Shown in pieces: positions 19,727-39,612 of a stretch of DNA of 64,000 bases (the stretch's first letter is position 1; each line of letters begins with the position of its first letter). The notes beneath the pieces were generated by a model. It was given only the letters and a program-made list of their open reading frames with translations, had not been told where the DNA came from and made no database searches. The stretch spans positions 47,757 through 111,756 of the forward strand of contig CAYSOF010000011.1 in NCBI GenBank assembly GCA_964432595.1. Reading direction: 5' to 3'. The stretch comes from an uncultured Candidatus Binatia bacterium. Lineage in GTDB: Bacteria; Desulfobacterota; Binatia; DP-6. Both the position numbers and the translations under genes were made by a program.

Positions 19727-22456
<2,730 letters not shown>

Positions 22457-22460
22457 CGCC

Positions 22461-25189
<2,729 letters not shown>

Positions 25190-25196
<7 letters not shown>

Positions 25197-25210: not shown

Positions 25211-25469
25211 CGGGCGCCCGGCGCACGCGCGGCACGGCGCGACGTCCACGCCGTGCGGCGCCTGGCCCACGGCACGGGACTTGGAGCCACGACGGGCATG
25301 CCGTTGCCGCTCGATCCGCCCCCCCGCCGGCGTCCCGACGTCGCCGGATGGCTCCTCGTGCTCACCGGCGTGGTCGTGGTCGCGCTGCTCTTCGGGACGC
25401 TGCTGCTGGGAACGCTGCTCGCCACGTGGGGCTGACGGGCCATTTCCCTCCGGGCCGCCGATCGCATAC

Positions 25470-26651
25470 ATGGGCCGCCCCGTGACACGCCCGAACACGC
25501 CGGCCACCTTCGACATCGACGCCGTCGACCTCGACGCCTTCGCCCGCGACGTGCAGGCGCTCCGCAGCGAGCTGCGCGAGGCGCTCGGTCCCGACGACCT
25601 CCGCCATCTGCGCCGCATCGAGCGCTGGGGACGCATCGCCACCGCCGTCGGCCTGGCGACCGCATGGATCGCGCCGAACCCCGTCAGCGCGATCGGCCTC
25701 GGGCTCGGCCGCTCGAGCCGGTGGCTCCTGATGCACCACATCGGCCATCGCGGCTACGATCGCGTGCCCGGCGCACCGGCCCACCACACGTCGCGCGTGT
25801 TCGCGCGCGGCTGGCGCCGCCTGGTCCAGTGGGCCGATTGGATGGTGCCCGCCGCGTGGGTCTACGAGCACAACGTGCTGCACCACCAGCACACGGGCGA
25901 GCGCCGCGACCCGGACCTGATCGAGCAGAACGTCGCCGACATCCACGAGGCGCGCCTGCCGATGGCCGCACGCTGGGCGCTGCTCGGGCTGCTCGCCGCG
26001 ACGTGGCGCGCGTCGTACTACGCGCCCAAGACGCTGCGCGCGTGGTGGCACCGGCACGCCGCCGAGGACGCGCCGGCCGCCACGCCACGCGGCGTCTTCG
26101 TCCGCGCGTGCCTGGCGCCGTACGTGCTGCTGCAGCTCGTCGTCCTGCCGCTGCTGTTCGCGCCGCTCGGCGCATGGGCCGTCTTCTCGGCGTGGTGCAA
26201 CTCGCTGCTCGCCGACGTCGTCACCAACCTGCACACGTTCTTCGTCGTCGGTCCGAACCACAGCGGCGACGACGTGCTGCGCTTCGACGGCCCCGCCCGC
26301 TCGCGCGGCGAGTTCTACGTACGCCAGGTCGTCGGCTCGGTGAACTACCGGACGGGCGGCGACGTCGTCGACTTCGCGCACCTGTGGCTCAACTACCAGA
26401 TCGAGCACCACCTCTTCCCCGACCTGCCCATGCTCGCGTATCGCCGCGCGCAGCCGAAGGTCGCCGCGCTGTGCGCCCGCCACGGCGTCCCGTACCTGCA
26501 GGAGCCGGTCACGCGCCGCTTCGCGAAGATGGCGCGCATCTTCGTCGGCACCGCGCGCATGCCGTGGATGCGGGCGCCTGCCCCGCGACGCCGCGTCCGC
26601 CCCGTGCCGCTCGTCGCTGCGCGTACGGAGCCCGTCGCCGCCGAAGCCTGA
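25470..26651 (+). CDS. membrane fatty-acid desaturase
   Basis: Three His boxes (HHIGHRGY, HNVLHHQH, QIEHHLFP) and hydrophobic segments. 393 aa. Confidence 0.85.
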   Translation: MGRPVTRPNTPATFDIDAVDLDAFARDVQALRSELREALGPDDLRHLRRIERWGRIATAVGLATAWIAPNPVSAIGLGLGRSSRWLLMHHIGHRGYDRVPGAPAHHTSRVFARGWRRLVQWADWMVPAAWVYEHNVLHHQHTGERRDPDLIEQNVADIHEARLPMAARWALLGLLAATWRASYYAPKTLRAWWHRHAAEDAPAATPRGVFVRACLAPYVLLQLVVLPLLFAPLGAWAVFSAWCNSLLADVVTNLHTFFVVGPNHSGDDVLRFDGPARSRGEFYVRQVVGSVNYRTGGDVVDFAHLWLNYQIEHHLFPDLPMLAYRRAQPKVAALCARHGVPYLQEPVTRRFAKMARIFVGTARMPWMRAPAPRRRVRPVPLVAARTEPVAAEA

Positions 26652-26706: not shown

Positions 26707-28155
26707 ATGCGCGCCATGCGCATCCTCCTCCTGCTGGCGTCGCTCCTCCTCGTCCCGCGGCTCGCCGTATCGGCGGTCGCGGACCCGACCGTCGAAGGCC
26801 CCATCTCCGCCAGCACGGGCGGCGCCTTCATCGCCGGCACGACGTTCGACCTGGCCGACGTCGGCTACGTGCAGGAGGAGTTCTTCATCTCCGGCACCGC
26901 GACGGCGTTCACGTCGGCGAGCCCGCTCGCGTCGGACGGCGCGTGGTCGGTGACGCCGGCGAGCACGGCGGCGTACAAGACGCGCATCCTCGTGTATCGC
27001 CCGGCGCGCGCACGCTCGTTCGGCGGCACGGTCTTCGTCGAGTGGCTCAACGTCAGCGGCGGCCTCGACTCGGCGCCCGACTGGATCACCGCCCACATCG
27101 AGATGATCCGCGCCGGCATGGTGTGGGTCGGCGTCTCGGCGCAGTTCGTCGGCGTCGAGGGCGGCGGCGGCCTCGTCAGCCTGCCCCTCAAGAGCGTCAA
27201 CCCCCGGCGCTACGGCTCGCTCGTGCATCCGGGCGACAGCTACTCGTACGACATGTACTCGCAGGCCGGGCAGGCGCTGCGCGGGGCGTCGAGCGCGCGC
27301 ATCCTCGGCGGCCTCGTGCCCGAGGTCGTGATCGCCGCGGGCGAGTCGCAGTCGGCATCGCGCATGGTGACGTACGTGAACGGCATCCATCCGCTCGCCG
27401 GTGTCTTCGACGGCTTCCTGATCCACAGCCGCAGCGGCGGCGGCGCCCCCCTCGCGCAGAACCCCTTGCCGCCGATCAGCGTCGCGTCGCCGATGCGGAT
27501 CCGCACCGATCTCGACGTCCCCGTCTTCACCTTCCAGACGGAGACCGACGTCCCCAACTTCGTGGCGAGTCGCCAGCCGGACACGGACCGTCTCCGCCTC
27601 TGGGAAGTCGCGGGCACCGCACACGCCGACACCTACACGCTCGTCACCGGCATGACCGATCGCGGCGACGACCCGTCCGTCGCCGACGTCGTGATCATCT
27701 CCTCGCCGATCCCGGGCATCATCGACTGCGGCGCGCCGATCAACTCGGGGCCGCAGCATTTCGTGCTCGACGCCGCGCTCCACCATCTCGACCGCTGGAT
27801 ACGCCGCGGCACGCCGCCGCCGCACGGGCCGCTGCTCCAAACGCTGCCCGGCTCGACGACGTTCGCCACCGACGCGTTCGGGAACGTCCTCGGCGGCGTC
27901 CGGACGCCGTGGGTCGACGTGCCGGTGGCGACGCTGTCGGGCTTCGGCCAGCCGAGCGGCGGCAGCTTCTGCGGCCTCTTCGGCACGACCGTCGCCTTCG
28001 ACGACGCCACGCTCGACGCGCTCTACCCGTCGAACCGCATGTTCGTGCGCAAGTACCGCAAGGCGCTGACGCGGGCGGTGCGGTCCGGTTTCATGCGACG
28101 GCAGGACGCGACGCTGATCCGTCGGGGGCTCCGCGACGGCACCGTCGCCCCGTAG
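26707..28155 (+). CDS. secreted hypothetical protein (possible hydrolase)
   Basis: Signal peptide MRAMRILLLLASLLLVPRLAVSAVA. 482 aa, ordinary composition. Confidence 0.6.
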   Translation: MRAMRILLLLASLLLVPRLAVSAVADPTVEGPISASTGGAFIAGTTFDLADVGYVQEEFFISGTATAFTSASPLASDGAWSVTPASTAAYKTRILVYRPARARSFGGTVFVEWLNVSGGLDSAPDWITAHIEMIRAGMVWVGVSAQFVGVEGGGGLVSLPLKSVNPRRYGSLVHPGDSYSYDMYSQAGQALRGASSARILGGLVPEVVIAAGESQSASRMVTYVNGIHPLAGVFDGFLIHSRSGGGAPLAQNPLPPISVASPMRIRTDLDVPVFTFQTETDVPNFVASRQPDTDRLRLWEVAGTAHADTYTLVTGMTDRGDDPSVADVVIISSPIPGIIDCGAPINSGPQHFVLDAALHHLDRWIRRGTPPPHGPLLQTLPGSTTFATDAFGNVLGGVRTPWVDVPVATLSGFGQPSGGSFCGLFGTTVAFDDATLDALYPSNRMFVRKYRKALTRAVRSGFMRRQDATLIRRGLRDGTVAP

Positions 28156-28216
28156 GCTCGACGTCCCGGGGCGCGTCCCGGTAGCCCAGATTGGAGATTC
28201 CGCCCTCCCACCCATC

Positions 28217-28232
28217 TGGTAGGTTTTCCGCG
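28217..28232 (+). promoter_or_regulatory. candidate sigma-54 (-24/-12) promoter upstream of the 28258 cluster
   Basis: TGGtaggttttccGCg: GG and GC at canonical spacing, 26 nt before the ATG. Weak match (TGGTAG / CCGC vs TGGCAC / TTGC). Confidence 0.25.
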
Positions 28233-28257
28233 TGCGGGTCGAGGCAGCCGAGCGCCC

Positions 28258-30942
28258 ATGACGCGTTTTCTCGGCGTGCGTCCGGAGGACGGACGCACGG
28301 TCTGGACGGCGTTCGCGACGCTCATGACGATCGTCGCGGCGCATGCGGTCCTCGAGACCGCCCGCGACGCGCTCTTCCTGGCGGACCTGCCGGCGAGCCG
28401 CCTGCCCTGGGCGTATCTGGGCATCGCGACGCTCGCCTTCGTGACGGTGCGCCTCAGCGCACCGCTGGCGGCGCTCGGTCCGCCCCGCCGCATCCTCGCC
28501 ACCATGCTCGTGCTCGGTGCGGCCGGCACGGCGGCGTTCTGGCGGCTCCTCGGCACGCGCACCCCGACGGAGCTCATGGCGCTCTACGTCTGGACCGGGC
28601 TCCTCGCGTCGGTCGTCGTCACGCAGTTCTGGGTGCAGCTCGGCCATCGCATGGACGTCGGCCAGGCGCGCCGCGCCTACGCCGTCGTCGCCGCGGGCGG
28701 CATGCTCGGCGCGACCGTCGGCTCGCTCGTGGCGACCGCCGTGCTGGCGTTCCATGCGCCCCGGATGCTGCTGCCCGTCGCCGCGTCGATGTTCGCGCTC
28801 GCCGCCTGCCTGCCGCTCTTCGGCCGCGACGGGCCGGCGACGGCGGAGACGACCGCCACCGAGCCGGACGAGCCGCCCCCGACCGTGGCCGCGATCTGGG
28901 CCGACCCGTACCTGAAGCGCCTCCTCCCGCTCGCCGCCCTCGCGCCGATCGTCGCGATGGCGATCGACTTCGTCTTCAAGAGCGTCGTCACGTCCAGCGT
29001 GTCGCGCGACGCGCTCGGGCCGTTCTTCGCACGCTACAACGCGGTCGTGAACGGGCTGGCCCTCGCGTTCCAGCTGCTCGTCGCGCCCCGCCTCCTGCAG
29101 GGCATCGGCGTGGTCCGGAGCCTCTGCCTCTTCCCCGGCACGCTGGCCACCGTCGCCACCGGTGTCGCCCTGACGGGCGGCCTGCCCGCGGCGCTCCTCC
29201 TCCGCGGCACCGACGGCGTCCTCCGCCACTCCCTGCATCGCGCGGCCACCGAGATCCTCTTCGTTCCGCTCGCCGCGGCCACGCGCACCGCGCTGCGCGG
29301 TCTCGCGGAGTCGCTCGGCCAGCGCGGCGGGCAGGTCGTCGGCTCGCTCCTGATACTCGGCGCGATCGCGCTCGGCGCGACGCCGGAGACGCTCGCCGCG
29401 GCGGTGGCGGTGCTGTGCGGGCTGTGGCTGTACGGGTACGTCCGCCTCGAGCACCACTACGTCGACCGCTTCCGGACCCAGCTGCGAACGCTCGCCACCG
29501 CCGACGCGAGCGTCCCCCAGCTGGACGTGCGGTCGCTGGAGACGCTGGTCGTCACGCTGAGCGCGCCGAACGACGCCGAGGTGATCGCCGCGATGGACGT
29601 GCTCGCGAGCTTCGCGCGCACGCACCTCGTCCCGCCGCTCATCCTCTACCACCCGTCGCCCGCCGTCGTGGTGCGCGGGCTCGAGCTGTTCGAGGGCGTG
29701 ACGCGCGAGGACGTCCAGGCGATCCGCCGCCGCCTGCTCGAGCACGACGATCCGGCGGTCCGCGCCGCCGCGCTGCGCGCGCTCGCCGCCACCGGACTCG
29801 ACCAGGCCGCCGTGCGCCGCGTGCTGCGCGCCGATCGCTCGCCGCTCGTTCGATCGACCGCGCTCGTCCTCTGGACGGCGACGCGCGCCGACGGCGACAC
29901 CGATCTCGACGACGCCGTCGCGGACCTGCTCGCCGCGCCCGATCCGGCGTCGCGCCTCGCCGTGGCCGCGACGCTCGCCGAGCTGCCCGGCCGGCTCCTG
30001 CTGCCCGTGGCGCGCGCGTTGCTGCGCGACGGCACGCCGGCGATCCGCCGGCAGGTCGCCCGCGCGCTCGCGACCGATCCGGACCGCGCCCGCATCCCGG
30101 TGCTGACGGCGCTCGTCGCGTCGCCCGAGGCCCGCACCGCGGCGCGCGCGGGCCTCCTCGCCATCGGCACGCCCGCGCTCGAGCATCTCGCCACGGCCCT
30201 GGCGTCGGCCGACACGCCGCCGGCGCTGCGCCGCCACCTGCCGCGGTCGATCAGCCCCTTCGCGTCGCAGCGCGCCGCCGACGTCCTCGTCCACCAGCTC
30301 GACCGCGAGACCGACGGCCGCGTCCTCTACAAGATCTTGCGCGGGCTCGGCCGCATGCGCGCCGACGATCCCGCCCTGCAGGTCGACGGCACGATCCTGA
30401 TGCGTCATGCCCAGCGCACGCTCGAACGGACCATCGAGCTGCTCGCGTATCGCGTCGCCCACCTGCTGCTGCGCGGCACGCCCGCCACCGCCGTGGCGCC
30501 CGACGACCTGCTCGGCCGCCTGCTGGCCGAGAAGGAGCAACGCGCCCTCGAGCGCGCGTTCCGCGTCCTGCAGATCCTGCAGACGCAGGAGGACTTCGCC
30601 ACCATGTACGCCGCGCTGTCGTCCGACGCGCCGGCGACTCGCGCCGGCGCGCGCGAGCTGCTCGGCCACGTGCTCGACGGACCGCTGCGCGACGCGCTGC
30701 TGGCGCTCACCGACTCGCTGCCGCCCGCCGAGCGTCTCGTCGAGGCGCACCGCGCGCTCCCCGTCGCGGTCGCCGACCTGGCGCTCGCGGCGTGGCGCAC
30801 GCCCACGACCGCCGGGGCGGTCGCCGCCGCGCTCGACGGCATCGTCGCCGCGCTCCACGCGGACCGCAGCCAGACGCTCGCGGCCATCGCCCGCCACGAG
30901 CTGCACATCCCCATGACGGAGACGCCTCGTGCCGCCAGCTGA
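28258..30942 (+). CDS. TLC/MFS-like polytopic membrane domain fused to C-terminal HEAT-repeat domain
   Basis: N-terminal ~430 aa multi-TM region resembling the ATP/ADP-translocase (TLC) family. The C-terminal half carries repeated HEAT-like units (DPAVRAAALRALAATG, SPLVRSTALVLW, PASRLAVAATLAEL, TPAIRRQVARALATDP). Confidence 0.75.
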   Translation: MTRFLGVRPEDGRTVWTAFATLMTIVAAHAVLETARDALFLADLPASRLPWAYLGIATLAFVTVRLSAPLAALGPPRRILATMLVLGAAGTAAFWRLLGTRTPTELMALYVWTGLLASVVVTQFWVQLGHRMDVGQARRAYAVVAAGGMLGATVGSLVATAVLAFHAPRMLLPVAASMFALAACLPLFGRDGPATAETTATEPDEPPPTVAAIWADPYLKRLLPLAALAPIVAMAIDFVFKSVVTSSVSRDALGPFFARYNAVVNGLALAFQLLVAPRLLQGIGVVRSLCLFPGTLATVATGVALTGGLPAALLLRGTDGVLRHSLHRAATEILFVPLAAATRTALRGLAESLGQRGGQVVGSLLILGAIALGATPETLAAAVAVLCGLWLYGYVRLEHHYVDRFRTQLRTLATADASVPQLDVRSLETLVVTLSAPNDAEVIAAMDVLASFARTHLVPPLILYHPSPAVVVRGLELFEGVTREDVQAIRRRLLEHDDPAVRAAALRALAATGLDQAAVRRVLRADRSPLVRSTALVLWTATRADGDTDLDDAVADLLAAPDPASRLAVAATLAELPGRLLLPVARALLRDGTPAIRRQVARALATDPDRARIPVLTALVASPEARTAARAGLLAIGTPALEHLATALASADTPPALRRHLPRSISPFASQRAADVLVHQLDRETDGRVLYKILRGLGRMRADDPALQVDGTILMRHAQRTLERTIELLAYRVAHLLLRGTPATAVAPDDLLGRLLAEKEQRALERAFRVLQILQTQEDFATMYAALSSDAPATRAGARELLGHVLDGPLRDALLALTDSLPPAERLVEAHRALPVAVADLALAAWRTPTTAGAVAAALDGIVAALHADRSQTLAAIARHELHIPMTETPRAAS

Positions 30943-31855
30943 CGACGACGCGCCGATCGCACGGCTCCTCGTCATCAAGGCGCTGCCGCTGTTCGCGGAC
31001 GTCGGGGCCGACGAGCTCGCCGTCATCGCGGAGCACACGCACGCGCACAGCTTCGCCCGCGGCGAGACGGTCTTCGGCGGGCCCGACGTGCCCGTCGACA
31101 CGATCCACCTGATCCTCGACGGGCGCATCACCGAGCACCGGAACGGCCGGCCGTTCCGCACCTACGGGCCGCAACGCGTGCTCGGCGGCGTCGACGCGCT
31201 CGCACGCCGGGAGCGCACGGTGCACGCCGTCGCGGACGAGGACACGCGCACGATCGCCATCGATCGCACCGCGCTGCACGACATCCTCGAGGACAACTTC
31301 GGCATCCTCGCGGCCGCCCTGCAGGGCGTCGCCGGGGCCATCCTTCGCCTGCGCAACGTTCTGCCCTCCGCCGGCTTCGAGGGCGCGGCCGGGCACCACG
31401 GCGCGGCACCCGCGTTCGTCGACTCCCTCGCCGCGCGACTCACGCTGCTGCGCGACACGACGTGGCTCGGGCGCGCCGCCGTGCGCACGCTCGGCCAGCT
31501 GGCACGCGAGGCCCAGGTGGCCGCGATCACGGGCGACACGCGCCTCTGGTCCGCGGGCGACGTCGCCGAGCACGCGGTCGTGGTCCTGCGCGGCGCCGTC
31601 GCGTGCGCGCCGGCCGATCGCCGCGCCTTCCGGGTGGGGCCGGGCACGATCCTCGGGATGGAGGAATCCCTGGCGCTCGACCCGCGTTGGTGTGACGCCG
31701 CCGTCGCGGGCGACGCGACGCTCCTGACGCTCACGCGCACGGCGCTGCTCGACGCGCTCGAAGACGACACCGACAGCGCCGTCGCCGTGCTGGCGGGGAT
31801 GGCGAGCGTCGCGAGCGGGCTGCGCGACCTGGTGGCCGAGGAAGGTTCCGCATGA
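30929..31855 (+). CDS. tandem cyclic-nucleotide-binding-domain protein (no HTH)
   Basis: Two CNB-like modules (FARGETVFGGPDVPVDTIHLILDGRI and LWSAGDVAEHAVVVLRGAV...GPGTILGMEE). Overlaps the upstream gene by 14 nt and the downstream gene by 4 nt. Confidence 0.7.
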   Translation: MPPADDDAPIARLLVIKALPLFADVGADELAVIAEHTHAHSFARGETVFGGPDVPVDTIHLILDGRITEHRNGRPFRTYGPQRVLGGVDALARRERTVHAVADEDTRTIAIDRTALHDILEDNFGILAAALQGVAGAILRLRNVLPSAGFEGAAGHHGAAPAFVDSLAARLTLLRDTTWLGRAAVRTLGQLAREAQVAAITGDTRLWSAGDVAEHAVVVLRGAVACAPADRRAFRVGPGTILGMEESLALDPRWCDAAVAGDATLLTLTRTALLDALEDDTDSAVAVLAGMASVASGLRDLVAEEGSA

Positions 31856-32874
31856 CGTCCACGTTCGTCCGTGTCCTGGCGGCGCTGCTGCTGCCCGTCG
31901 CCGTCGGGTGTGCGCGCCCGCCGTCGCCCCCCGGGGCGCAGGCGCCGCGCTATCGCGACCGCTCCGCGTCCCCGCCCGGCAACAACTGGCCCATCTCCGC
32001 GCGCCGCGCCGAGCGGCTCTTCACGCGCGCGCCCATCGAGATGGCGTCCGTGACGCGCACCGAGACGGGCGTGGCCGGCGCGTTCAAGGCCGAGGTCGAG
32101 TTCCCGCCCGACCCGCGCCGCGTCACGATCAAGTGGAAGCCGGCGTCCGGCGACGACATGGACAACTGGAACAACAACCCGCGCAAAGAGGTGGCGGCGT
32201 ACGTGATCCAGCAGTGGTTCCTCGAGCCGCGCGACTACGTCGTGCCGACCACGGCCGTCCGCTGCGCCCCGCTCGACGCGTACCGCCGCCTCGAGCCCGA
32301 GGCCACGCCCACGATCGAGGGCACGCGCTGCGTCCTCGGCATGGTGTCGCTCTGGCTCGACCACGTGACGGTCCCCGAGCCGCTCTACGATCCCGACCGC
32401 TTCGCGCGCGACTACCGCTACGCGTACCACCTGGCCGACTTCAACGTGCTCGCCTACCTGATCCGCCACCGCGACGGCCGCGCGGGCAACATCCTCGTCG
32501 CCGACGACGACGCGAACCGCCGCGTCTTCGCCATCGACAATGGGATCAGCTTCGACGGGCTGGTCTACAACTTCCTCGTCTCGAACTGGGACGAGATCCG
32601 CGTGCCCGCGATCCGCCGCGAGGTGGTCGAGGAGCTGCGGGACGTCGACCGCGAGGACCTCGAGGAGCTCGGCACGCTCATCGAGATGCGCGCCGACAAG
32701 CACGGCGTGCTCCGCAACGTGCGCCCCACCGCGCCCATCGATCCGACGCAGGGGGTCCGCATCGCGCCGGGGCGGGTGCAGATGGGGCTCACCACCGCGG
32801 AGATCGACGGCCTCGCCACGCGCATCCGCGACCTGCTCCACCGCGTCGACCAGGGAACGCTCGCGGTCTTCTGA
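31852..32874 (+). CDS. lipoprotein with protein-kinase-like domain (atypical kinase)
   Basis: Lipobox LLLPVAVGCARPP. Gly-loop-like ETGVAGAF. Beta3-Lys-like RRVTIKWKP. Catalytic-loop-like HRDGRAGNILV (HRDxxxxN spacing). DNG (DFG-like) 17 residues later. Confidence 0.65.
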   Translation: MTSTFVRVLAALLLPVAVGCARPPSPPGAQAPRYRDRSASPPGNNWPISARRAERLFTRAPIEMASVTRTETGVAGAFKAEVEFPPDPRRVTIKWKPASGDDMDNWNNNPRKEVAAYVIQQWFLEPRDYVVPTTAVRCAPLDAYRRLEPEATPTIEGTRCVLGMVSLWLDHVTVPEPLYDPDRFARDYRYAYHLADFNVLAYLIRHRDGRAGNILVADDDANRRVFAIDNGISFDGLVYNFLVSNWDEIRVPAIRREVVEELRDVDREDLEELGTLIEMRADKHGVLRNVRPTAPIDPTQGVRIAPGRVQMGLTTAEIDGLATRIRDLLHRVDQGTLAVF

Positions 32875-34184
32875 TGCGAGAGCAGAAGCTCCTCGGAGCG
32901 GTCGGCGCCGTACGGCGCGAGGAGTGGCCGTTCGCGCTCTGCATGTTCACCTACGTCTTCCTCGTCATCGCCACGTTCTGGATCCTGAAGCCGCTCAAGA
33001 AGAGCCTCTTCCTCCAGCACTACGACGCGGCCGGGCTCACGCTGCTCGGCCATCGCTTCGCCGCCGCCGAGGCCGAGCTGTTCGCGAAGGTCCTCAACAT
33101 GGTCGTGGCCGCGGCGGCCGTCGCGGCGTTCACGTGGCTCGCGGGACGCCTCCGCCGCGAGCGGCTCACCGCGGCGTTGATGGCGTTCTTCGTGGCGGCC
33201 GACGTGGCGTTCGGCCTCGTGCTGGCCAGGCCCGGCGCCGCCACCGTCTGGACCTTCTACCTCTACGGCGACCTCTTCAGCACGCTGATGGTCGCGACGT
33301 TCTTCGCCTTCCTGAACGACAGCGTCACGCCGGAGGCGGCGAAGCGGCTCTACGGCTTCGTCGGGCTGGGCGCCGTCGTCGGCGGCGTCGTCGGCAGCAG
33401 CGTCCTCGGCGCGCTCGTGACCGCCCTCGGCGCGCCGACCTGGGCGTTCGTCTGCGCGGCCGTCGGGCTCGTGATCGTCGCCGTCGCCTGGCGGGCGGGC
33501 GCCCTGGTCCGCGACCACGCGTCGACGCCGCCGGCCGAGCCCGAGCCGCGCGGCGAGCGCAGCGCCGCGCTCGAGGGTGCCGCCCTGGTGTTCGCGTCCC
33601 GCTATCTGCTCGCCATCACCGCGATGGTCGCGGTCTACGAGGTCGTCTCGACGGTGATGGACTTCCAGTTCACCAGCACCGTCTCGCACTATCTCGACGG
33701 CGACGCGATCGGACGGCACCTGTCGCGCGTCTTCGCGGTGACGAACGTCGCGTCGATGCTGGTGCAGCTGTTCCTCACCAGCACGATCATGCAGCGCTGG
33801 GGCGTCGGCGCCGCGCTCCTCGTCCTGCCCTGCACGACCGGTCTCGGCGCCGCGGCGTTCCTCGCCTGGCCGAGCCTGTGGGTCGGGAGCGCCCTCAACA
33901 CGGCCGACAACGCGTTCAGCTACTCGGTCAACCAGTCGGCGAAGGAGGCGCTCTACGTGCCCACCACGCCGGACGAGAAGTACAAAGCCAAGGCGTTCAT
34001 CGACATGTTCGTGCAGCGCTTCGCGAAGACGCTGGGCGTCGGGCTGAGCCTCGCCATGGGCGCCTGGTTCGGCGACTTCGCGAGCGTCCGCTGGCTGTCG
34101 CTGGTCACGCTGGCGCTCGCCGGCGTGTGGGTGCTCGCCGCCCGGTACGCGGGACGCCGATTCGCCGAGGAGGAGGCGGCGTAG
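32874..34184 (+). CDS. TLC-family (ATP/ADP translocase-like) nucleotide transporter
   Basis: 433 aa, ~12 TM segments. N-terminal KPLKKSLFLQHYDAAG typical of the TLC family. TGATG overlap with the upstream gene. Confidence 0.75.
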   Translation: MREQKLLGAVGAVRREEWPFALCMFTYVFLVIATFWILKPLKKSLFLQHYDAAGLTLLGHRFAAAEAELFAKVLNMVVAAAAVAAFTWLAGRLRRERLTAALMAFFVAADVAFGLVLARPGAATVWTFYLYGDLFSTLMVATFFAFLNDSVTPEAAKRLYGFVGLGAVVGGVVGSSVLGALVTALGAPTWAFVCAAVGLVIVAVAWRAGALVRDHASTPPAEPEPRGERSAALEGAALVFASRYLLAITAMVAVYEVVSTVMDFQFTSTVSHYLDGDAIGRHLSRVFAVTNVASMLVQLFLTSTIMQRWGVGAALLVLPCTTGLGAAAFLAWPSLWVGSALNTADNAFSYSVNQSAKEALYVPTTPDEKYKAKAFIDMFVQRFAKTLGVGLSLAMGAWFGDFASVRWLSLVTLALAGVWVLAARYAGRRFAEEEAA

Positions 34185-34187
34185 CCC

Positions 34188-34790
34188 TCACCCGAGATGC
34201 TCGACGACGTCGAAGCGCAGCACGCGCGCGGCCGGGTCGAGCTCGAGCTCCGTGATGCTGGTGTTGCGCGTGTGGTAGCCGGTCCACTTGCGGGGGTCGT
34301 CGTGCAGGAGGCGGGCGATGCCGATCGCGATGGCCGCACCGTGGCTCACCGCGACCACCTCGCGGCCCGGGTGCGCCGCCGCGATGTCGCGCCACGCCGT
34401 CACGACGCGGTCGGCGACGCCGCCGAGCGACTCGCCGCCCGACGGGGCCCACGCGAGATCCTCGGCCTGCACGAAGAAGCGATGCCGGTCGAGCAGGTCG
34501 CTGAACTTTTCGTTCTCGTAAACGCCGATGCCGTACTCCGCGAGGCCCGGCGATTTCATGAGCGGCAGGTCGAGCGCCTCGGCGATGGCGGCCGCCGTCG
34601 CCGCCGCGCGCTGGAGCGGGCTCGTGTAGACGGCCGCCAGGTCCGGGCGCGTCCGCGCGAGGTACGCGGCCACCTGCTGCGCCTGCCAGCGGCCCTGGTC
34701 CGTGAGCGCGTGGTCGGTCGAGCCGTGCCAGCGCTGCTCGAGATTGGCGGGAATCTGGCCGTGACGGACGAGAAGCAACCGGGCGGACAT
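34188..34790 (-). CDS. histidine phosphatase (phosphoglycerate-mutase) family protein
   Basis: LLLVRHGQ (RHG catalytic motif) and a downstream SHGAAI histidine. Confidence 0.8.
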   Translation of the reverse strand: MSARLLLVRHGQIPANLEQRWHGSTDHALTDQGRWQAQQVAAYLARTRPDLAAVYTSPLQRAAATAAAIAEALDLPLMKSPGLAEYGIGVYENEKFSDLLDRHRFFVQAEDLAWAPSGGESLGGVADRVVTAWRDIAAAHPGREVVAVSHGAAIAIGIARLLHDDPRKWTGYHTRNTSITELELDPAARVLRFDVVEHLG

Positions 34791-34883
34791 CCGCTTCGTC
34801 TATCCTCCGCGACGAGCCGGCGCGAGCGATGCACGAGACGGCTTCCGGCGCACGCGGAGCCGGGCTAGCGTGGCCCGCGAGCA

Positions 34884-36182
34884 ATGCCTCGGGCCTCCCG
34901 ATCCTGCGCGACCTTCCTCGTCGCGGCCCTGCTCGCCGGTGGTTGCAGCCACACGCGCCCATACGTCCGTGGGCCGGCCACCACGCCCGCCCCCGCGCCA
35001 TCGGCGATCGACCATCGGCTGATCCTGATCGGCGACGCCGGTGACGCGAATCCGGACGGCGAGCCGGCGCTCGATCTGCTCGAGGAGCGCGTCCGGGTCG
35101 CGCCGGGCATGACCACCGTCGTCTTCCTCGGCGACAACGTCTACGAGACCGGCATGCCGGACCCGACCGATCTCGAGTGCACCGCGCTCGAGAGCATTCT
35201 CGACGAGGTGCTGCTGAACCTCTACGAGAGCCGATGCGAGGCCGAGCGCCTCCTGAAGGCCCAGGTGAAGGCCGTCCGCGTTCCGGGCGCGCGCGCCATC
35301 TTCATCCCGGGCAATCACGACTGGGATCAGTTCGGCGTCGGCGGGTTCAAGCGCGTGCTCAATCAGCAGGCGTTCATCTTCCAGCTGCGCACGGCCACCC
35401 AGGACATCGCCGAGGTCAGCATGCTGCCCGGCAACGGGTGTCCGGGCCCGACGACGGTCGACATCGGGCGCCGTGGCCGGCTGGTCATCCTCGACACGCA
35501 GTGGTGGGTCGACGTCGGCACGAAGCCGACGCCGGAGCACAATCCGACGTCGTGTCCGTACGTCACCGAGGCGGACGTCCTCGCGGCACTCCTGCGCGAG
35601 ATCGAGGCGGGTGTCGCCGCCGGACGCGAGGTCGTGGTCGTCGGCCATCATCCGCTCGCCAGCAAGGGCCCGCACGGGGGGCACGTCGACCCCGTCGTGC
35701 ACCTCTTTCCGCTCACGATGCTCAGCACGTACGTGCCGTTCGTCGTGCGCTGGCTGCCCCTCCCGGTCCTGGGCTCCGTGGCCGCGTGGCTGCGCGCGAA
35801 CCGTTCGCCGAGCGGCCAGGATTTCTCCGGGCCCGGCAACGCGGAGATGCGGAAGGCCCTCGAGACCACCATGGCGACGGCGGCGTCGCGCGGCGCCACG
35901 CCGCTGCTGTACGCCGCCGGCCACGACCACAGCCTGCAGGTCTTCGAGGCCCGCAGCGGCCCGCGCTATACGGTCGTCAGCGGGCTCGGCTCGAGCTCGA
36001 AGCAGTCGGAAGTGCGGCACGACCACTGGACGCGCTTCGCCCACGCCGACGCGACCCGCCCCGGCCTGATGGAGGTCGACTTCACCACCGACGGCCACGC
36101 GCGCCTCGCGGTGTACGAGTGGTCTCCGGAGCGCAAGGGCGGCGAGGAGGTCTACGCGCTCGAGCTCACCGCGGGCTGGTGA
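34884..36182 (+). CDS. metallophosphoesterase (calcineurin-like) lipoprotein
   Basis: Lipobox LVAALLAGGCSHT. Metal motifs LILIGDAGD, VFLGDNVYE, FIPGNHDWD, VVVGHHP. Confidence 0.75.
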   Translation: MPRASRSCATFLVAALLAGGCSHTRPYVRGPATTPAPAPSAIDHRLILIGDAGDANPDGEPALDLLEERVRVAPGMTTVVFLGDNVYETGMPDPTDLECTALESILDEVLLNLYESRCEAERLLKAQVKAVRVPGARAIFIPGNHDWDQFGVGGFKRVLNQQAFIFQLRTATQDIAEVSMLPGNGCPGPTTVDIGRRGRLVILDTQWWVDVGTKPTPEHNPTSCPYVTEADVLAALLREIEAGVAAGREVVVVGHHPLASKGPHGGHVDPVVHLFPLTMLSTYVPFVVRWLPLPVLGSVAAWLRANRSPSGQDFSGPGNAEMRKALETTMATAASRGATPLLYAAGHDHSLQVFEARSGPRYTVVSGLGSSSKQSEVRHDHWTRFAHADATRPGLMEVDFTTDGHARLAVYEWSPERKGGEEVYALELTAGW

Positions 36183-36636
36183 GGGGCCGGAACGGCGAGA
36201 GCAGGAAATCGACGCCGGCCGCGTGGCACCCCGTGCAGAGCGGGAGGCCGCGGCCGTAGAACGCGTCCGCATTCGTTCCGTCGAGCGTCTCGTAGAACAG
36301 CCACGCACGGCCGCCGCGTCCGCCGCGCAGCTTCCGCATGACGGCCCATCCGACGACCTGCTCCTGCCCGGCGAAGTACAGCTCCTTCACCATCGCGGCG
36401 CCGCGCCGGAACGTCGTCCGTCCCGCGGCGAGATCGTCGACGAGGACGGGGCTGTAGAACGTCCGCACGTGCATGCCGTGCGCGGTGGCCGACGTGTGCA
36501 CCGCGGGCTCGCCCGTGTAGCTGGCCTGATACGCCCCTGCCCGCAACCAGCGGAGCAGCGGGCCCTTGCGACGGGGCGGCGTGGCCTGGGCGCCGGTGAC
36601 GGTCACGAGCAGGATCAGCACGACGAGGACGCGCAT
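36166..36636 (-). CDS. small secreted protein with CxxCH motif (possible c-type cytochrome)
   Basis: Signal peptide MRVLVVLILLVTVTGAQA. Single CTGCH heme-binding-type motif near the C-terminus. Confidence 0.45.
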   Translation of the reverse strand: MRVLVVLILLVTVTGAQATPPRRKGPLLRWLRAGAYQASYTGEPAVHTSATAHGMHVRTFYSPVLVDDLAAGRTTFRRGAAMVKELYFAGQEQVVGWAVMRKLRGGRGGRAWLFYETLDGTNADAFYGRGLPLCTGCHAAGVDFLLSPFRPLTSPR

Positions 36637-36820
36637 CGAGCGCTCCGATGCCGGAGCCGGTCGGCACGTCACACCACGACGCGGGGCTGCCACGTCCCGG
36701 ACGTAGCCCATCCGCGCACGGAAAACATCTCGGGCCTGCCGCCCTTCCCCGGGTTCCGCCCGGCGTTCTCCCGTCATGTCAGGAGTACACGGATGCGGCG
36801 ATTCGCGGATAACGATCGTC

Positions 36821-39544
36821 ATGCGTGCTCTCGCCGTCCTGCTCGCCCTCGCGCTGCCCTCGCTCGCCCTGGCCCAGGCCGCACGGAACGTCGAGCCCGT
36901 CGTCCTGACCGGCGCCGAGGTGCCGGCGTGGTCGCGGCTTCCCGCCCTCACCGTGTGCGCCCCGTATCCCTCGGGCACGACCGGCGGCCGCGACGCGCAC
37001 AACGGCACGACCATCGTCCCGCCCGACGTTCGCACCGGCGTCGCCGTCGACGACGTCGTGGCGTTCCGCTGGACGGGGCTCGCCTGGGTCGAGATCCGGG
37101 TGCAGGTCGACGAACGCTTCGACTACTGCCTGTCGAACCCGCCGTCGGACTTCGCGCTGTACTCCGGCACGGACAAGGAGCTCACGTACGCGTGGGACGT
37201 CGAGAGCTGGAAGAAGACCGACGGCCAGTGCGTCGCCGCCTATCCGCCCGGCGCCGCGCCGACGCCGGATCCCGTCGCCACGCTCGACGACGACGACGAG
37301 ATCGTCTTCATGGCGAGCGACGCGGGCCAGCAGGCGCCGCTGGCGGTGCTGACGCCGCCCGGCACCAGCAACGGCCAGGCGGTCGCCGTGGTCGACCCGT
37401 TCGATCCCACGGCGCCGGCGTTCGTCTACCTCTTCCTGCGCGCCGGCGGCTCGTCGTTCGACGCGTCGAGCGGCTACGTCGACTATACGCGCGATGCGAA
37501 CGCCGACGAGTGGATCGATCGCCACTCGATCGCCGCCGACGACCCCGAGATCCTCGGCGTCAGCAACACCGGCTACGGCCCGAACCTGCCCGGCGACGTC
37601 TGCCGCACGGCCGTGTCGCCCGGCTATCCGGCGACGCCCGACGGTGCGCCGCGCCCGTCGACGGACCGCTTCGTGCGCGACGGCGTCACCGTCGCCACCG
37701 ACGCCTACGAATGGCGCGCGACCGGCCGTTGGATGGTGCGCGGCCTGCGCGTCGCGAAGCCCGGACAGCCGGGCGTCTACGGCCCCGACCTGATCGACCG
37801 CTGGAAGGGGCGCGCGTTCCAGCAGAGCCCCGACTCGACGATCTCGCTCGTCGGCTTCGAGGACGAGCAGGTGAACTGGGAGGCGAACAGCGCGCTCCTC
37901 GGCGAGCGCGTCGGGCCGGTGCGCGCGATCCGCGAGGTGTGGGGCGCCGACTCGGGCACCAACGTCACGAAGACCGAAACCTTCTATCGCGACGCGGTGG
38001 CGTACCGGTACCACGTGCGCGTCCATCCCATCCCGCCCGACGGCCTCTACACGTCGTGGGACTACAACGCCGGCGTCGCCACGCGGTACTACAACCTGCT
38101 GAAGCCGAACGGCGTCGCGATCGACGGCGTCAACGACGACGTCGGCAACGTCGACGGCCTCTTCGGCGTTCCCGCGTTCTTCGATGCGCCCGACCCGACG
38201 TTCAACGTGCCGAGCGCGATCCTCAACTGGGAGCAGATCTCGGGCGCCGGCGACGCCGGCGCGCTCGTCTACATCCTCGAGCTGAAGGGCGCGACGACGC
38301 TCGTGAACCCGGCCGTCGTGCCGTACTACCGCGACGACAAGTGCCTCGACGACGGCACGGGCGACGACCCGGTCGCGCGGCCCTGGCCCGGCGAGGCGTC
38401 GACCGACCCGCGCGTGCAGGCCGGCTATGCCGCCGCGGCGGGCGGCACGCCCTACCCGCAGCTCACGTGCGACCAGAAGCAGGGCGCCTGGGGCGCGCAC
38501 GGCGTCCACTACTTCGTCACCGGCGACAGCGACAACGCCGCGTCGCCCGAGGTGCTGACGGAGATCGACGCGCAGCAGTGGCAGTTCACCGTGCCGACGG
38601 CGGCGCCGGCGAACGTCGCGCAGCCCTACGCGAACACGGTGATCCTGCCGCTCCTGACGGTCGTCACGCCGATCGTCGGCCCGCCGCCGCTGCTCGCGCC
38701 GAGCGCGGCCGACGCGTCGGCCGTCACGCCGCAGGACACGCCGGTCGGCGTGACGCTCGCGGGCGGCGATCTCCTGACCTGCGAGCTCGGCTTCACGATC
38801 GTGACGCCGCCCGCGCACGGCACGCTCGGCGCGATCACGGGCGAGGCATGCACGCTCGGCCTGCCGTCGTCGGACACCGCGCGCGTCACCTACACGCCGG
38901 AGCCGGGCTACGCCGGCAGCGACGCGTTCACGTACCGCACGAACGACGGTCTGTTCGACTCGTCGCCGGCGTCCGTGTTCCTCACCGTCGAGCCGCTGCC
39001 GCCGCCGACCTGCGCGAACGGACCCGTCGTCGGCTGCCGGCGGCCGGTGCGGACGGACAAGGCGACGCTGTCGGTGACGGACCGCTCGCCCGACGTGAAC
39101 GACGAGCTGACGTGGAAGTGGACCGCCGGCGCGGCGACGACGCTCGCCGACTTCGGCACGCCGCTCACGACGACGAGCCATCAGCTGTGCGTCTACGACG
39201 GCGCAGGCGACACGGTCGCTCGCGCGAGCGTGCCGCCGGGCGGGACGTGCGACGGCCGGCCGTGCTGGTCGGCGAAGGGCAGCCGCTATCTGTACCGGAG
39301 CCGCGAACGCGTTCCCGGCGGCGGCAAGCGCAGCACGCTCCGGCTGACGCTCGCGGCCGGCATCGACGGCAAGGCGAAGATTCTCCTGAAGGGCCGCGGC
39401 GTCCACTTCGGGCTCGACGCCCTCCCCTGGGCGCAGCCCGTCGTCGTGCAGCTGAAGAACGGCGAGGGCGAGTGCTGGGAGGCACGGTACGACGCGCCGG
39501 CGCGGCGCAACCAGCCGGGACGGTTCCTCGACAAGGGTGACTGA
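36821..39544 (+). CDS. large secreted protein with Ig/cadherin-like domain and C-terminal recurrent beta-domain
   Basis: Signal peptide MRALAVLLALALPSLALAQA. Ig-like unit (VTYTPEPGYAGSDAFTYRTNDG). C-terminal ~180 aa domain shared with four other proteins in the window. Confidence 0.75.
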   Translation: MRALAVLLALALPSLALAQAARNVEPVVLTGAEVPAWSRLPALTVCAPYPSGTTGGRDAHNGTTIVPPDVRTGVAVDDVVAFRWTGLAWVEIRVQVDERFDYCLSNPPSDFALYSGTDKELTYAWDVESWKKTDGQCVAAYPPGAAPTPDPVATLDDDDEIVFMASDAGQQAPLAVLTPPGTSNGQAVAVVDPFDPTAPAFVYLFLRAGGSSFDASSGYVDYTRDANADEWIDRHSIAADDPEILGVSNTGYGPNLPGDVCRTAVSPGYPATPDGAPRPSTDRFVRDGVTVATDAYEWRATGRWMVRGLRVAKPGQPGVYGPDLIDRWKGRAFQQSPDSTISLVGFEDEQVNWEANSALLGERVGPVRAIREVWGADSGTNVTKTETFYRDAVAYRYHVRVHPIPPDGLYTSWDYNAGVATRYYNLLKPNGVAIDGVNDDVGNVDGLFGVPAFFDAPDPTFNVPSAILNWEQISGAGDAGALVYILELKGATTLVNPAVVPYYRDDKCLDDGTGDDPVARPWPGEASTDPRVQAGYAAAAGGTPYPQLTCDQKQGAWGAHGVHYFVTGDSDNAASPEVLTEIDAQQWQFTVPTAAPANVAQPYANTVILPLLTVVTPIVGPPPLLAPSAADASAVTPQDTPVGVTLAGGDLLTCELGFTIVTPPAHGTLGAITGEACTLGLPSSDTARVTYTPEPGYAGSDAFTYRTNDGLFDSSPASVFLTVEPLPPPTCANGPVVGCRRPVRTDKATLSVTDRSPDVNDELTWKWTAGAATTLADFGTPLTTTSHQLCVYDGAGDTVARASVPPGGTCDGRPCWSAKGSRYLYRSRERVPGGGKRSTLRLTLAAGIDGKAKILLKGRGVHFGLDALPWAQPVVVQLKNGEGECWEARYDAPARRNQPGRFLDKGD

Positions 39545-39612
39545 GCGCATGCCGGGTGCGCCGAGCTTTTGCCGTTGACCTCCGTGGGCGCCGATCCGTA
39601 CAGTCCGGACGC

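Follow-up and report, generated by a model that had tools for sequence, protein, structure and literature searches.

Transporters related to ATP/ADP translocases are paired with a predicted exported kinase and phosphatase in a conserved bacterial gene neighborhood

The periplasm is usually regarded as ATP-free. In eukaryotes, the Fam20-type kinases of the ER/Golgi lumen receive their ATP through an ATP/ADP exchanger. NTT-HEAT genes are common across cyanobacteria and Chlamydiae, and an NTT-HEAT gene with a cNBD gene next in line is a known, uncharacterized operon arrangement for which a role in regulated ATP uptake has been proposed (Major, Embley & Williams 2017, PMC5381601). The same paper reports duplicated cNBDs for oomycete and Bacilli fusions, cites NTT family substrates beyond ATP (e.g., NAD and SAM), and makes no mention of kinases, phosphatases, periplasm or export.

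The cluster described here occupies positions 28258-34184 of the window, the whole 64,000-nt stretch of DNA analyzed, which derives from an uncultured Candidatus Binatia bacterium. The GC3 frame plot and the ORF list give four co-directional genes on the + strand: g1 (28258..30942, 894 aa), with a TLC/NTT-type membrane domain and HEAT repeats; g2 (30929-31855, 308 aa, GTG start), with two cNMP-binding domains; g3 (31852-32874, 340 aa), a predicted lipoprotein with an atypical, Fam20/PI4KII-like kinase fold; and g4 (32874-34184, 436 aa), a stand-alone TLC/NTT-family transporter. Adjacent genes overlap by 14 nt (g1/g2), 4 nt (g2/g3, ATGA) and 1 nt (g3/g4, TGATG), confirming the co-directional, overlapping arrangement of the original prediction, whose domain calls for the four genes also proved essentially correct (Pfam; lipobox and kinase motifs for g3). 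All relatives compared are MAG or metagenome sequences.

Pfam places both membrane domains in the TLC family, as the original prediction had proposed. g4 scores 75.6 bits against TLC, with an additional match to MFS_1, and phmmer aligns it with solved NTT structures (9j3n, E 1.6e-12; 9j3j, E 2.2e-11) over FY..(A/G)(E/D)L(W/F).....F(W/F)(G/A)F(A/L)N(E/D) and KE..Y(I/V)P....(Q/E)K.K.KA.ID. On these alignments g4 is a genuine NTT relative that keeps the signature motifs of the family. g1 consists of a membrane domain (residues ~1-400) and a C-terminal HEAT-repeat domain of ~470 aa (HEAT_2, 2.3e-13); its TLC match is above the cut-off (24.8 vs. 21 bits) and is confined to the C-terminal portion of the membrane domain. 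This domain has 25-28% identity to g4 orthologs (tblastn, E about 1e-16). Against TIGR00769 (cut-off 387 bits) g4 scores 71.8 and g1 16.1 bits, and both are distant in sequence from characterized NTTs. Orthologs of g4 (53-77% identity) lie directly 3' of g3 at 14 genome loci and 30 metagenome loci.

Orthologs of g1 in L001, L002 and L006 share 63-71% identity and align from residue 1. g2 is a soluble protein with two stretches matching Pfam cNMP_binding (57.9 bits, 1e-15), in which neither a signal peptide nor a DNA-binding domain was detected; at 11 of 80 g3 loci, and also in L164, its gene is kept as the one that follows TLC-HEAT. Together, g1 and g2 are a previously described but uncharacterized module, and only their association with the kinase, the phosphatase and the second TLC gene is new. 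The view that the gene combination was undescribed therefore fails for NTT-HEAT plus cNBD (2017, PMC5381601) and stands for that association. NTT-HEAT genes also occur widely among cyanobacteria and Chlamydiae (PMC5381601). A function independent of g3 is probable for the NTT-HEAT transporter.

g3 founds a small family without a Pfam domain or annotation. It carries the lipobox LLLPVAVG/C and the motifs K94/K96, E113, H206-R-D208-x4-N213 and D229-N-G, and its match to PI3_PI4_kinase is sub-threshold only (20.6 bits vs. a cut-off of 27.1). The predicted structure is a confident model, with Fam20B, Fam20C and PI4KII-alpha as the best structural matches, followed by CtkA, actin-fragmin kinase, CotH and HipA. 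No Pfam Fam20C match was found, and the structural alignments with Fam20 have 13-16% identity, with no detectable sequence relationship. Thus the lipoprotein call and catalytic signature of the original prediction hold, while its 'ePK-like' label was rejected, as the fold is Fam20/PI4KII-like and the only Pfam similarity falls short of the cut-off. Across 34 homologs, down to 42% identity, the Lys, Glu, D-x4-N and DNG positions show no or almost no variation. At least 80 of 109 full-length homologs have a lipobox, as does the window protein, and others have ordinary signal peptides. By these signals g3 is a predicted exported lipoprotein, and in motifs and model it looks like an active kinase.

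Downstream, a Metallophos (calcineurin-like phosphoesterase) lipoprotein with weak similarity to purple acid phosphatases is encoded at 34884..36182 on the + strand (Pfam Metallophos; lipobox FLVAALLAGG/C). Its homologs (46-72% identity) adjoin the g3/TLC cluster in L001, L002, L006, L024, L044, L052, L053 and L060, with varying position and orientation, and two fusions (P0195 and P0212) combine a signal peptide, a g3 kinase and Metallophos. The four genes originally predicted stand, but not the four-gene extent, since the Metallophos gene co-occurs with the cluster in relatives; its predicted lipoprotein is, on such comparisons, part of the module and a candidate opposing phosphatase or nucleotide-processing enzyme. 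Y_phosphatase3 proteins of g3-g4-phosphatase loci carry lipoboxes, and Myxococcota loci with two TLC genes encode a Y_phosphatase3 protein without a signal peptide. A histidine phosphatase (34188..34790, - strand; Pfam His_Phos_1, 6e-48; no signal peptide) is convergent with g4. Its gene is kept at the same position in L001, L002, L006 and L065, and in L081 His_Phos_1 adjoins a signal-less g3 homolog with no TLC gene nearby; its membership of the module is uncertain.

Two genes lie immediately upstream. One encodes a fatty-acid desaturase (25281-26651) and is kept directly before the cluster in the window, L001 and L002; the other encodes an Abhydrolase_10 protein (26707-28155). Two sigma-54 activators (19727-22456 and 22461-25196), said to sit just before the cluster, are two genes (3 kb) upstream of it, and their proximity to it is not conserved. 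The -24/-12 element proposed at 28217-28232 (TGGTAGGTTTTCCGCG) has more than two mismatches from TGGCAC-N5-TTGC, and its GG is not conserved in the two closest relatives; shuffled sequence yields more of the looser matches to this consensus (45.6 expected) than the window does (30 observed). With non-adjacent, non-conserved activators and no credible -24/-12 site, a sigma-54 link of the cluster was rejected. Aligning the upstream regions from the window, L001 and L002 revealed a conserved intergenic block, GGTAGCCCAGATTGGAGATTCC (28180..28201, + strand), which precedes the g1 start by about 57 nt and is a possible promoter or operator.

The retained desaturase (window, L001, L002), together with PAP2 and Lip_A_acyltrans genes in related loci, would suit TLC proteins that carry something other than a nucleotide (phospholipid/lysolipid, sugar phosphate or another anion), with g3 phosphorylating this cargo as a lipid or glycan kinase of PI4KII-like type and the donor arriving by another route. 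g1 and g4 are indeed very divergent from characterized NTTs, lipid transport is generally known for other MFS proteins, and g3 shares DxxxxN, IDNG and its best Foldseek match with PI4KII-alpha, a lipid-anchored lipid kinase. We consider such cargo improbable: the donor problem of an exported kinase remains, g4 keeps the NTT signature motifs, and an exported PEP-synthase-like enzyme, also ATP-requiring, shares the association.

Our genome survey of g3 covered 40 species-level loci flanked on each side by 5 kb or more of sequence. A TLC gene is in the flank at 25 of these (within 500 nt at 14; two or more TLC genes at 14). The gene orders seen are g1-g2-g3-g4, g4-g1-g2-g3, g3-g4, g3-g4-phosphatase and convergent TLC pairs, and among the taxa with the linkage are Binatia, Myxococcota, Syntrophobacterales and a Methyloprofundus MAG; g3 homologs came only from the taxa of this survey. 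In the reverse test, g3 was directly upstream in 30 of 69 g4-type TLC metagenome loci having upstream sequence; many g4-type TLC genes are without a kinase neighbor. The g3-TLC neighborhood, whose conservation was to be a check on the original prediction, is therefore found in several gene orders, across phyla and from both directions. The flanks of the signal-less g3 homologs (L004, L005, L020, L025, L043 and L081) are free of TLC genes, and a comparison of export with TLC neighbor in g3 loci gave Fisher p = 0.024 (automated table, which ignores phylogeny); in L053, a g3 homolog without an evident signal peptide nonetheless has an adjacent TLC gene. The fusion P0205 (TLC, one extra hydrophobic helix and g3 kinase), on a single short contig, could be read-through from the TLC gene into the kinase gene's signal peptide.

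Neighborhood by descent only, with kinase and transporters functionally uncoupled, would accommodate the 15 of 40 full-flank g3 loci (37%, e.g., L082) with no TLC gene within 10 kb, as well as the wide spread of NTT-HEAT genes beyond the taxa covered for g3, e.g., in cyanobacteria and Chlamydiae (PMC5381601). We regard it as very improbable, given that the linkage survives rearrangement, strand change and phylum change, is seen from both directions, and is strengthened by domain fusions and by the window's overlapping, translationally coupled genes.

Besides g3, two more families of exported kinase-like proteins, K264 and K584, are encoded next to g4-type TLC genes. K264, beside the same TLC subfamily, bears a signal peptide and is remotely related to g3 (hhalign probability 85%, E 6e-6), and independently called NCBI loci have the orders Omp85-K584-Metallophos-TLC and Omp85-K584-Metallophos-TLC-HEAT-cNMP. 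A PEP-synthase-like dikinase with a signal peptide also adjoins this TLC subfamily.

The explanation we favor, which we give an even chance of being right, is that the TLC exchangers would provide ATP for a kinase/phosphatase pair outside the cytoplasm, with cNMP control from the cytoplasmic side, each function being inferred. Its transporter, kinase and cNMP parts were the central idea of the original prediction, which has support of a comparative kind only: the catalytic signature of g3 is intact, the lipoprotein signal is conserved, TLC linkage occurs in multiple orders in many phyla, and other exported ATP-using enzymes lie beside the same TLC subfamily. g4 and the g1 membrane domain would be inner-membrane nucleotide exchangers running outward, so that ATP reaches the periplasmic face and ADP is brought back, a direction suggested by the millimolar cytoplasmic ATP of a free-living cell. 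Lipid-anchored g3 would spend this ATP phosphorylating an envelope substrate (protein, glycan or lipid), and the exported Metallophos lipoprotein would undo the modification or recycle nucleotide, a role that an exported Y_phosphatase3 lipoprotein may fill in other lineages. The g1 HEAT domain and g2 would remain cytoplasmic and gate transport on a cyclic nucleotide signal, such control having been proposed for ATP uptake (Major et al. 2017, PMC5381601). It is quite unlikely that the g3 fold serves AMPylation, glutamylation or non-catalytic binding, with the cluster signaling envelope state and no substrate phosphorylated; non-kinase chemistry is documented for atypical kinase folds (e.g., a pseudokinase glutamylase among the references of PMC7948968), but the full invariant Lys/Glu/D-x4-N/DNG set argues against a non-catalytic protein. 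Such chemistry would still require ATP outside the cytoplasm and is therefore a variant of the ATP-supply explanation. ATP in the periplasm should leak out through porins, which should count against a module with its own ATP supply.

Import, exemplified by Chlamydiae and Rickettsiales, is the direction of all characterized NTTs (PMC5381601), and g4 aligns with ATP-importing carriers. The TLC proteins might then scavenge external nucleotides from prey or lysed cells, several host lineages including predators (e.g., Myxococcota), with Metallophos trimming nucleotides, as well-known periplasmic enzymes of this type do, and g3 serving as a binding or regulatory accessory that uses no ATP. Scavenging seems unlikely to us: it leaves unexplained the three exported kinase-fold families and the exported ATP-grasp dikinase beside the same TLC subfamily, the invariance of the kinase catalytic residues, and the loss of the TLC neighbor by signal-less g3 homologs, and an ATP-rich free-living cell gives an exchanger no gradient for net ATP import.

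The conserved pairing of ATP/ADP-translocase-type transporters with an exported kinase and phosphatase suggests that ATP is carried over the inner membrane for periplasmic phosphorylation. The closest functional analogue of the proposed module is the ER/Golgi exchanger with its Fam20 kinases. Fam20C and Fam20B are among the nearest folds to g3, which differs in being a predicted bacterial lipoprotein and in its partner transporter, from an unrelated family (TLC/MFS). Type II phosphatidylinositol 4-kinases (PI4KII-alpha/-beta) have the DxxxxN and IDNG motifs in common with g3; g3, however, is under the Pfam cut-off and on the opposite membrane side, and a phosphoinositide substrate is without evidence. 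CtkA (H. pylori), CotH (Bacillus spore coat) and HipA, unlike g3, work where ATP is available, in the host cell or mother-cell cytoplasm, and to our knowledge none is tied to a nucleotide transporter. g4 is homologous to the canonical NTT/Tlc ATP/ADP translocases (Chlamydiae, Rickettsiales, plastids; TC 2.A.12; 9j3n, 9j3j) and keeps their signature motifs, but it is shorter (436 aa), far under the NCBIfam cut-off and found in free-living lineages, and its proposed direction (ATP out/ADP in) is the reverse of the parasite case. As in the NTT-HEAT/cNBD arrangement of PMC5381601, g1 has an NTT-like membrane domain followed by HEAT repeats and is overlapped by a cNMP-binding gene, g2; here, in contrast, the pair has as neighbors the genes of a predicted exported kinase and phosphoesterase, together with another TLC gene that lacks HEAT repeats.

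The G+C content of the window is 72%, which crowds its raw ORF lists with shadow frames. A third-position GC plot resolves four successive genes on the + strand: g1 (28258-30942), encoding a TLC/NTT-HEAT fusion; g2 (30929-31855, GTG start), a protein with tandem cNMP-binding domains; g3 (31852-32874), a lipoprotein with a kinase-like fold; and g4 (32874-34184), a stand-alone TLC transporter. Successive genes overlap by 14, 4 and 1 nt, confirming the co-directional, overlapping arrangement of the original prediction, an arrangement that fits an operon with translational coupling. Beyond g4, the gene at 34188-34790 (His_Phos_1) is convergent to it.

The sigma-54 link of the original prediction did not survive closer analysis. 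The two activators, thought to sit just before the cluster, are tandem paralogs of ~910 aa each (19727-22456 and 22461-25196, both +, 4 nt between them) with a GAF-like N-terminus, a Sigma54_activat AAA+ domain and HTH_8. They lie 3 kb upstream of the cluster, with desaturase and Abhydrolase_10 genes directly upstream of g1, and are absent from the flanks of relatives, including the closest loci, L001 and L002. The weak -24/-12 element proposed near 28217-28232 has more than two mismatches from TGGCAC-N5-TTGC and is not kept in L001 or L002; no sequence within two mismatches of this consensus occurs in 28156-28257, and matches over the whole window are fewer than expected by chance. With the activators two genes away and not kept in L001/L002, and with no credible site, sigma-54 control of the cluster was rejected.

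A promoter and terminator scan of 28000-36400 yielded nothing useful. A block of 22 nt upstream of g1 (28180-28201, GGTAGCCCAGATTGGAGATTCC) is near-identical in L001 and L002, while the remaining intergenic sequence upstream of g1 diverges between the three loci; the block could be a promoter or operator. In these two closest relatives, a fatty-acid desaturase gene (25281-26651, +; L001:3796-4872; L002:5110-6186; ~79% identity) is kept as the immediate upstream neighbour of TLC-HEAT; in the window, the Abhydrolase_10 gene (26707-28155) separates the two. This conservation may hint at a lipid connection. Farther downstream, beyond a Metallophos lipoprotein gene (34884-36182), are two large + strand genes encoding 922 and 961 aa (36776-39544 and 39556-42441), only one of which has a Pfam match, a weak Big_9 Ig-like domain.

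Both membrane proteins score above the Pfam gathering cut-off (21) for TLC (PF03219; TC 2.A.12), with 75.6 bits for g4 and 24.8 bits for g1, in agreement with the prediction of two TLC-family proteins, one fused to HEAT repeats. The g1 match is limited to residues 274-401, the C-terminal part of the membrane domain, and g4 also matches Pfam MFS_1. For NCBIfam TIGR00769 (‘NTP/NDP exchange transporter’, cut-off 387) the scores are only 71.8 (g4) and 16.1 bits (g1), and by profile comparison both are distant relatives, outside the characterised core. Against the solved ATP/ADP carrier 9j3n, g4 aligns over residues 124-433 (E 1.6e-12) and retains the motifs KE..Y.P....K.K.KA.ID and FY...(E/D)L; g1 gave no transporter match among PDB sequences. 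By a simple hydropathy scan, g4 has 9 segments and g1 about 10-13 that overlap, for a family of twelve transmembrane helices. From these relationships, we infer that g4 and g1 exchange nucleotides.

HEAT_2 is matched in three stretches of g1 (2.3e-13), on the same polypeptide as TLC, and the product of g2, directly downstream, carries two stretches of cNMP_binding (PF00027), as anticipated for a tandem cNMP-binding protein. No HTH was matched in g2 with Pfam or NCBIfam; with two cNMP_binding domains and no HTH match, a CRP/FNR-type transcription regulator was ruled out. The pairing of TLC-HEAT and cNBD genes recurs in nine of the loci compared (L001, L002, L006, L011, L015, L024, L060, L065, L164). 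NTT-HEAT fusions were described by Major, Embley and Williams in 2017 as a monophyletic, widespread bacterial group, often with a cNBD gene within a few nucleotides downstream, or fused (PMC5381601). The arrangement of g1 and g2 fits this description, and the pair is a member of a module already described but uncharacterised, for which cAMP-tuned ATP uptake was a speculation of that study; kinases, periplasm and export are not mentioned there (PMC5381601). The idea that the four-gene combination is undescribed thus fails for g1 and g2; within the literature searched, the link of TLC genes to exported kinases and phosphatases is new. We found no later functional work on NTT-HEAT proteins, and no report of a link between TLC genes and exported kinases and phosphatases in the literature on NTT-HEAT or on bacterial Fam20-like and periplasmic kinases, nor in that on periplasmic ATP export or TLC proteins in free-living bacteria.

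The g3 family is small and unnamed. A word-indexed search gave 193 homologues, all ‘hypothetical’ and none with a Pfam domain, and a profile search over 1.84 billion cluster representatives returned only 648 matches; no exact record of the window g3 product (P0001) was found. The 80 genome loci, all from MAGs, belong to Binatia, Myxococcota, other ‘Deltaproteobacteria’, Syntrophobacterales, a Methyloprofundus (L061), Gemmatimonadota, KSB1, Calditrichota and others. Prediction with AlphaFold2 from 34 sequences gave a confident model (pLDDT 86.5, pTM 0.82), for which an independent Foldseek comparison ranks PI4KII-alpha top (E 2.8e-7) and Fam20C next; the nearest structural neighbours of the predicted fold lie in the Fam20/PI4KII families. 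The catalytic set in the family alignment is K94/K96, E113, H-R-D208-x4-N213 and D229-N-G, in which K94, E113, D208, N213, D229, N230 and G231 are invariant in the 34 sequences and K96 is nearly so; this conservation argues for an active enzyme.

At the sequence level, the g3 product falls short of membership in known families despite the similarity in fold and motifs to Fam20 and PI4KII. It scores 20.6 bits against PI3_PI4_kinase (cut-off 27.1), 19 of the 34 family members have only sub-threshold matches, and Fam20C is matched by none (0/34). The g3 profile gave only chance matches to PDB sequences, and the sole NCBIfam match (0.05) was to the SCO1664 family. Because membership in Pfam PI3_PI4_kinase and Fam20C fails, g3 is a separate, new family of putatively exported kinase-fold proteins.

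TLC genes are recurrent neighbours of g3. In 40 g3 loci flanked by 5 kb or more on either side, a TLC-family gene occurs in the flank of 25, within 500 nt in 14, and two or more TLC genes are present in 14; clustering of ORFs likewise identifies TLC proteins as the commonest conserved neighbour. The order g1-g2-g3-g4 is found in the window and in L001, L002, L006, L024 and L065; g4-g1-g2-g3 in L015, L044 and L060; and g3-g4, alone or followed by a phosphatase gene, in L048-L058, L061 and L064. Two opposite-strand TLC genes lie a few kb from g3 in another ten loci (L010, L013, L016, L018, L029, L031, L032, L036, L066, L080). For the reverse test, metagenome contigs were scanned with an alignment of g4 orthologs, giving 80 g4-type loci, and g3 is immediately upstream of the TLC gene in 30 of the 69 that have upstream sequence, with a typical gap of ~20 nt. 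In the neighbourhood comparison suggested for Myxococcota and other taxa, the g3-TLC linkage is kept, in rearranged form, and is found from both directions, with all relatives being MAG or metagenome sequences. The association is incomplete: 15 of these 40 g3 loci lack a TLC gene in the vicinity, and many TLC genes have no kinase neighbour. Several loci have two or three g3 paralogs, in tandem or flanking, beside a single TLC gene (L109:753-4185, L107:2-2039, L016:3660-7929, L024:9920-14690).

Based on its lipobox (MTSTFVRVLAALLLPVAVG before the Cys), the window g3 product is a predicted lipoprotein. A strict lipobox is present in at least 80 of the 109 full-length homologues, and several others carry ordinary signal peptides. 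Members of one subclade (L004, L005 and L081; P0058, P0065 and relatives) have an Arg-rich N-terminus without a hydrophobic core, e.g., MLSARQHRAIRQRLHQLGYHR, and a second subclade has a very short N-terminus (L012, L020, L025, L034, L041, L043); the available flanks of both subclades contain no TLC gene. L081 also has an adjacent, divergent His_Phos_1 gene and a Lip_A_acyltrans gene downstream. Across the well-flanked g3 loci, export status tracks the TLC neighbour: by automated calls, exported forms number 22 with and 8 without TLC, and forms with no signal 3 and 7, respectively (Fisher p = 0.024, loci counted without phylogenetic correction). By eye, a Beta-lactamase2 fusion, a signal peptide just below threshold and a gene with a frameshift account for the three signal-less cases with TLC; L053 genuinely departs from the trend.

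Phosphatases appear, from gene context and domain fusions, to belong to the module. The Metallophos protein of the window (34884-36182) has the lipobox FLVAALLAGG before Cys and is a lipoprotein by sequence, and homologues sharing 46-72% identity are neighbours of the g3/TLC cluster in eight loci (L001, L002, L006, L024, L044, L052, L053, L060), with position and orientation that vary (direct tblastn). In the cluster representatives P0195 and P0212, a signal peptide and the g3 kinase domain are joined to a Metallophos domain in one polypeptide. In loci of the g3-g4-phosphatase type, the TLC gene is followed by a Y_phosphatase3 gene (HCxGGKDRTG) with a lipobox; in Myxococcota loci with two TLC genes, the Y_phosphatase3 protein has no signal peptide. 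His_Phos_1, which lacks a signal peptide and is also found with signal-less g3 homologues without TLC neighbours, has an uncertain place as a core component.

Another fusion, P0130, combines a signal peptide, a Beta-lactamase2 domain and the kinase. Fusions of this type, with a class A beta-lactamase-like domain, occur in Myxococcota-type loci (L010, L013, L018, L029, L032, L036) whose opposite strand carries a pair of adjacent TLC genes and a signal-less Y_phosphatase3 gene. Beta-lactamase2 proteins also accompany a PEP-synthase-like enzyme, and these associations may hint at a cell-wall substrate. P0205 joins a TLC domain to the kinase through one extra hydrophobic helix, an order that would place the kinase outside; as a proof of topology this protein was downgraded, since it comes from a single 8.9-kb contig with possible read-through.

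The g4-type loci without g3 contain other exported ATP-using candidates: two kinase-like families, K264 and K584, and the PEP-synthase-like protein. K264 proteins (~264-300 aa) have a signal peptide and are often encoded in several tandem copies; hhalign with g3 (probability 85%, E 6e-6) lines up the Lys, Glu, catalytic loop and DxS/DNG motifs, and K264 is a remote g3 homologue. K584 proteins (~580 aa) have an invariant lipobox Cys and NHxDxKxxN and DFG motifs, with more than 6,500 homologues at E ≤ 1e-10; none of the 120 matches listed has a Pfam domain or an informative name. In Zixibacteria and Latescibacteria, the conserved order runs from Omp85 through the K584 kinase and a Metallophos lipoprotein to TLC or TLC-HEAT, sometimes with cNMP last. 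Independent NCBI annotation gives PAP2-Omp85-K584-Metallophos-TLC for a complete Zixibacteria chromosome (CP070813.1; L163:6668-12250) and Omp85-K584-Metallophos-TLC-HEAT-cNMP for a Latescibacteria MAG (L164:6674-14307), one of these exported-enzyme contexts thus including the HEAT and cNMP parts; the Metallophos proteins in both are unrelated to that of the window and are lipoproteins too. The presence of Omp85 as a partner points to display at the surface or to secretion.

The PEP-synthase-like protein (~966 aa) has a signal peptide and PEP-utilizers and PPDK_N ATP-binding domains, and six loci place its gene next to a TLC gene, with both orientations represented. Examples with signal peptides (L088:7405-10362; L095:3020-5920 and L098:3026-5926, both on the - strand) lie beside g4-type TLC and Beta-lactamase2-family genes. 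An ATP-grasp dikinase would not be expected among exported proteins. Four kinds of predicted exported protein therefore recur beside TLC genes: three families with a kinase fold and an ATP-grasp enzyme.

We propose that the exchangers g4 and g1 would run outward, and that g3 would spend the exported ATP on a substrate in the envelope. The Metallophos or PTP enzyme would undo the modification, and the HEAT domain and g2 would gate transport from the cytoplasmic side. To our knowledge, every known reaction of the fold of g3 uses a nucleotide, so the proposed ATP supply survives doubt over the precise chemistry. Nucleotides in the periplasm are expected to leak through porins, which counts against this mechanism. 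A broader reading, which we regard as possible and lean slightly against, is that many Gram-negatives have a dedicated periplasmic ATP route, in which outward TLC/NTT exchangers feed exported atypical kinases from several unrelated families (g3, K264, K584) and further exported enzymes that depend on ATP, every one alongside exported phosphatases.

The periplasm is generally regarded as ATP-free, and for this reason known periplasmic chemistry of the phosphorylation type is taken to use other donors. A general periplasmic system for ATP supply and envelope phosphorylation, if true, would be categorically new. NTT-type transporters of free-living bacteria were catalogued in 2017; if they export ATP to lipid-anchored kinases, this would explain the ‘orphan’ NTT-HEAT and TLC genes of these bacteria, define three uncharacterised families of exported kinases, and make regulated phosphorylation of envelope components a testable process, one that would be reversible and gated by cyclic nucleotides. 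Such a system would be a bacterial counterpart of the ER/Golgi ATP exchanger and Fam20 system, and thus a prokaryotic parallel, possibly a precursor, to phosphorylation in the eukaryotic secretory pathway.
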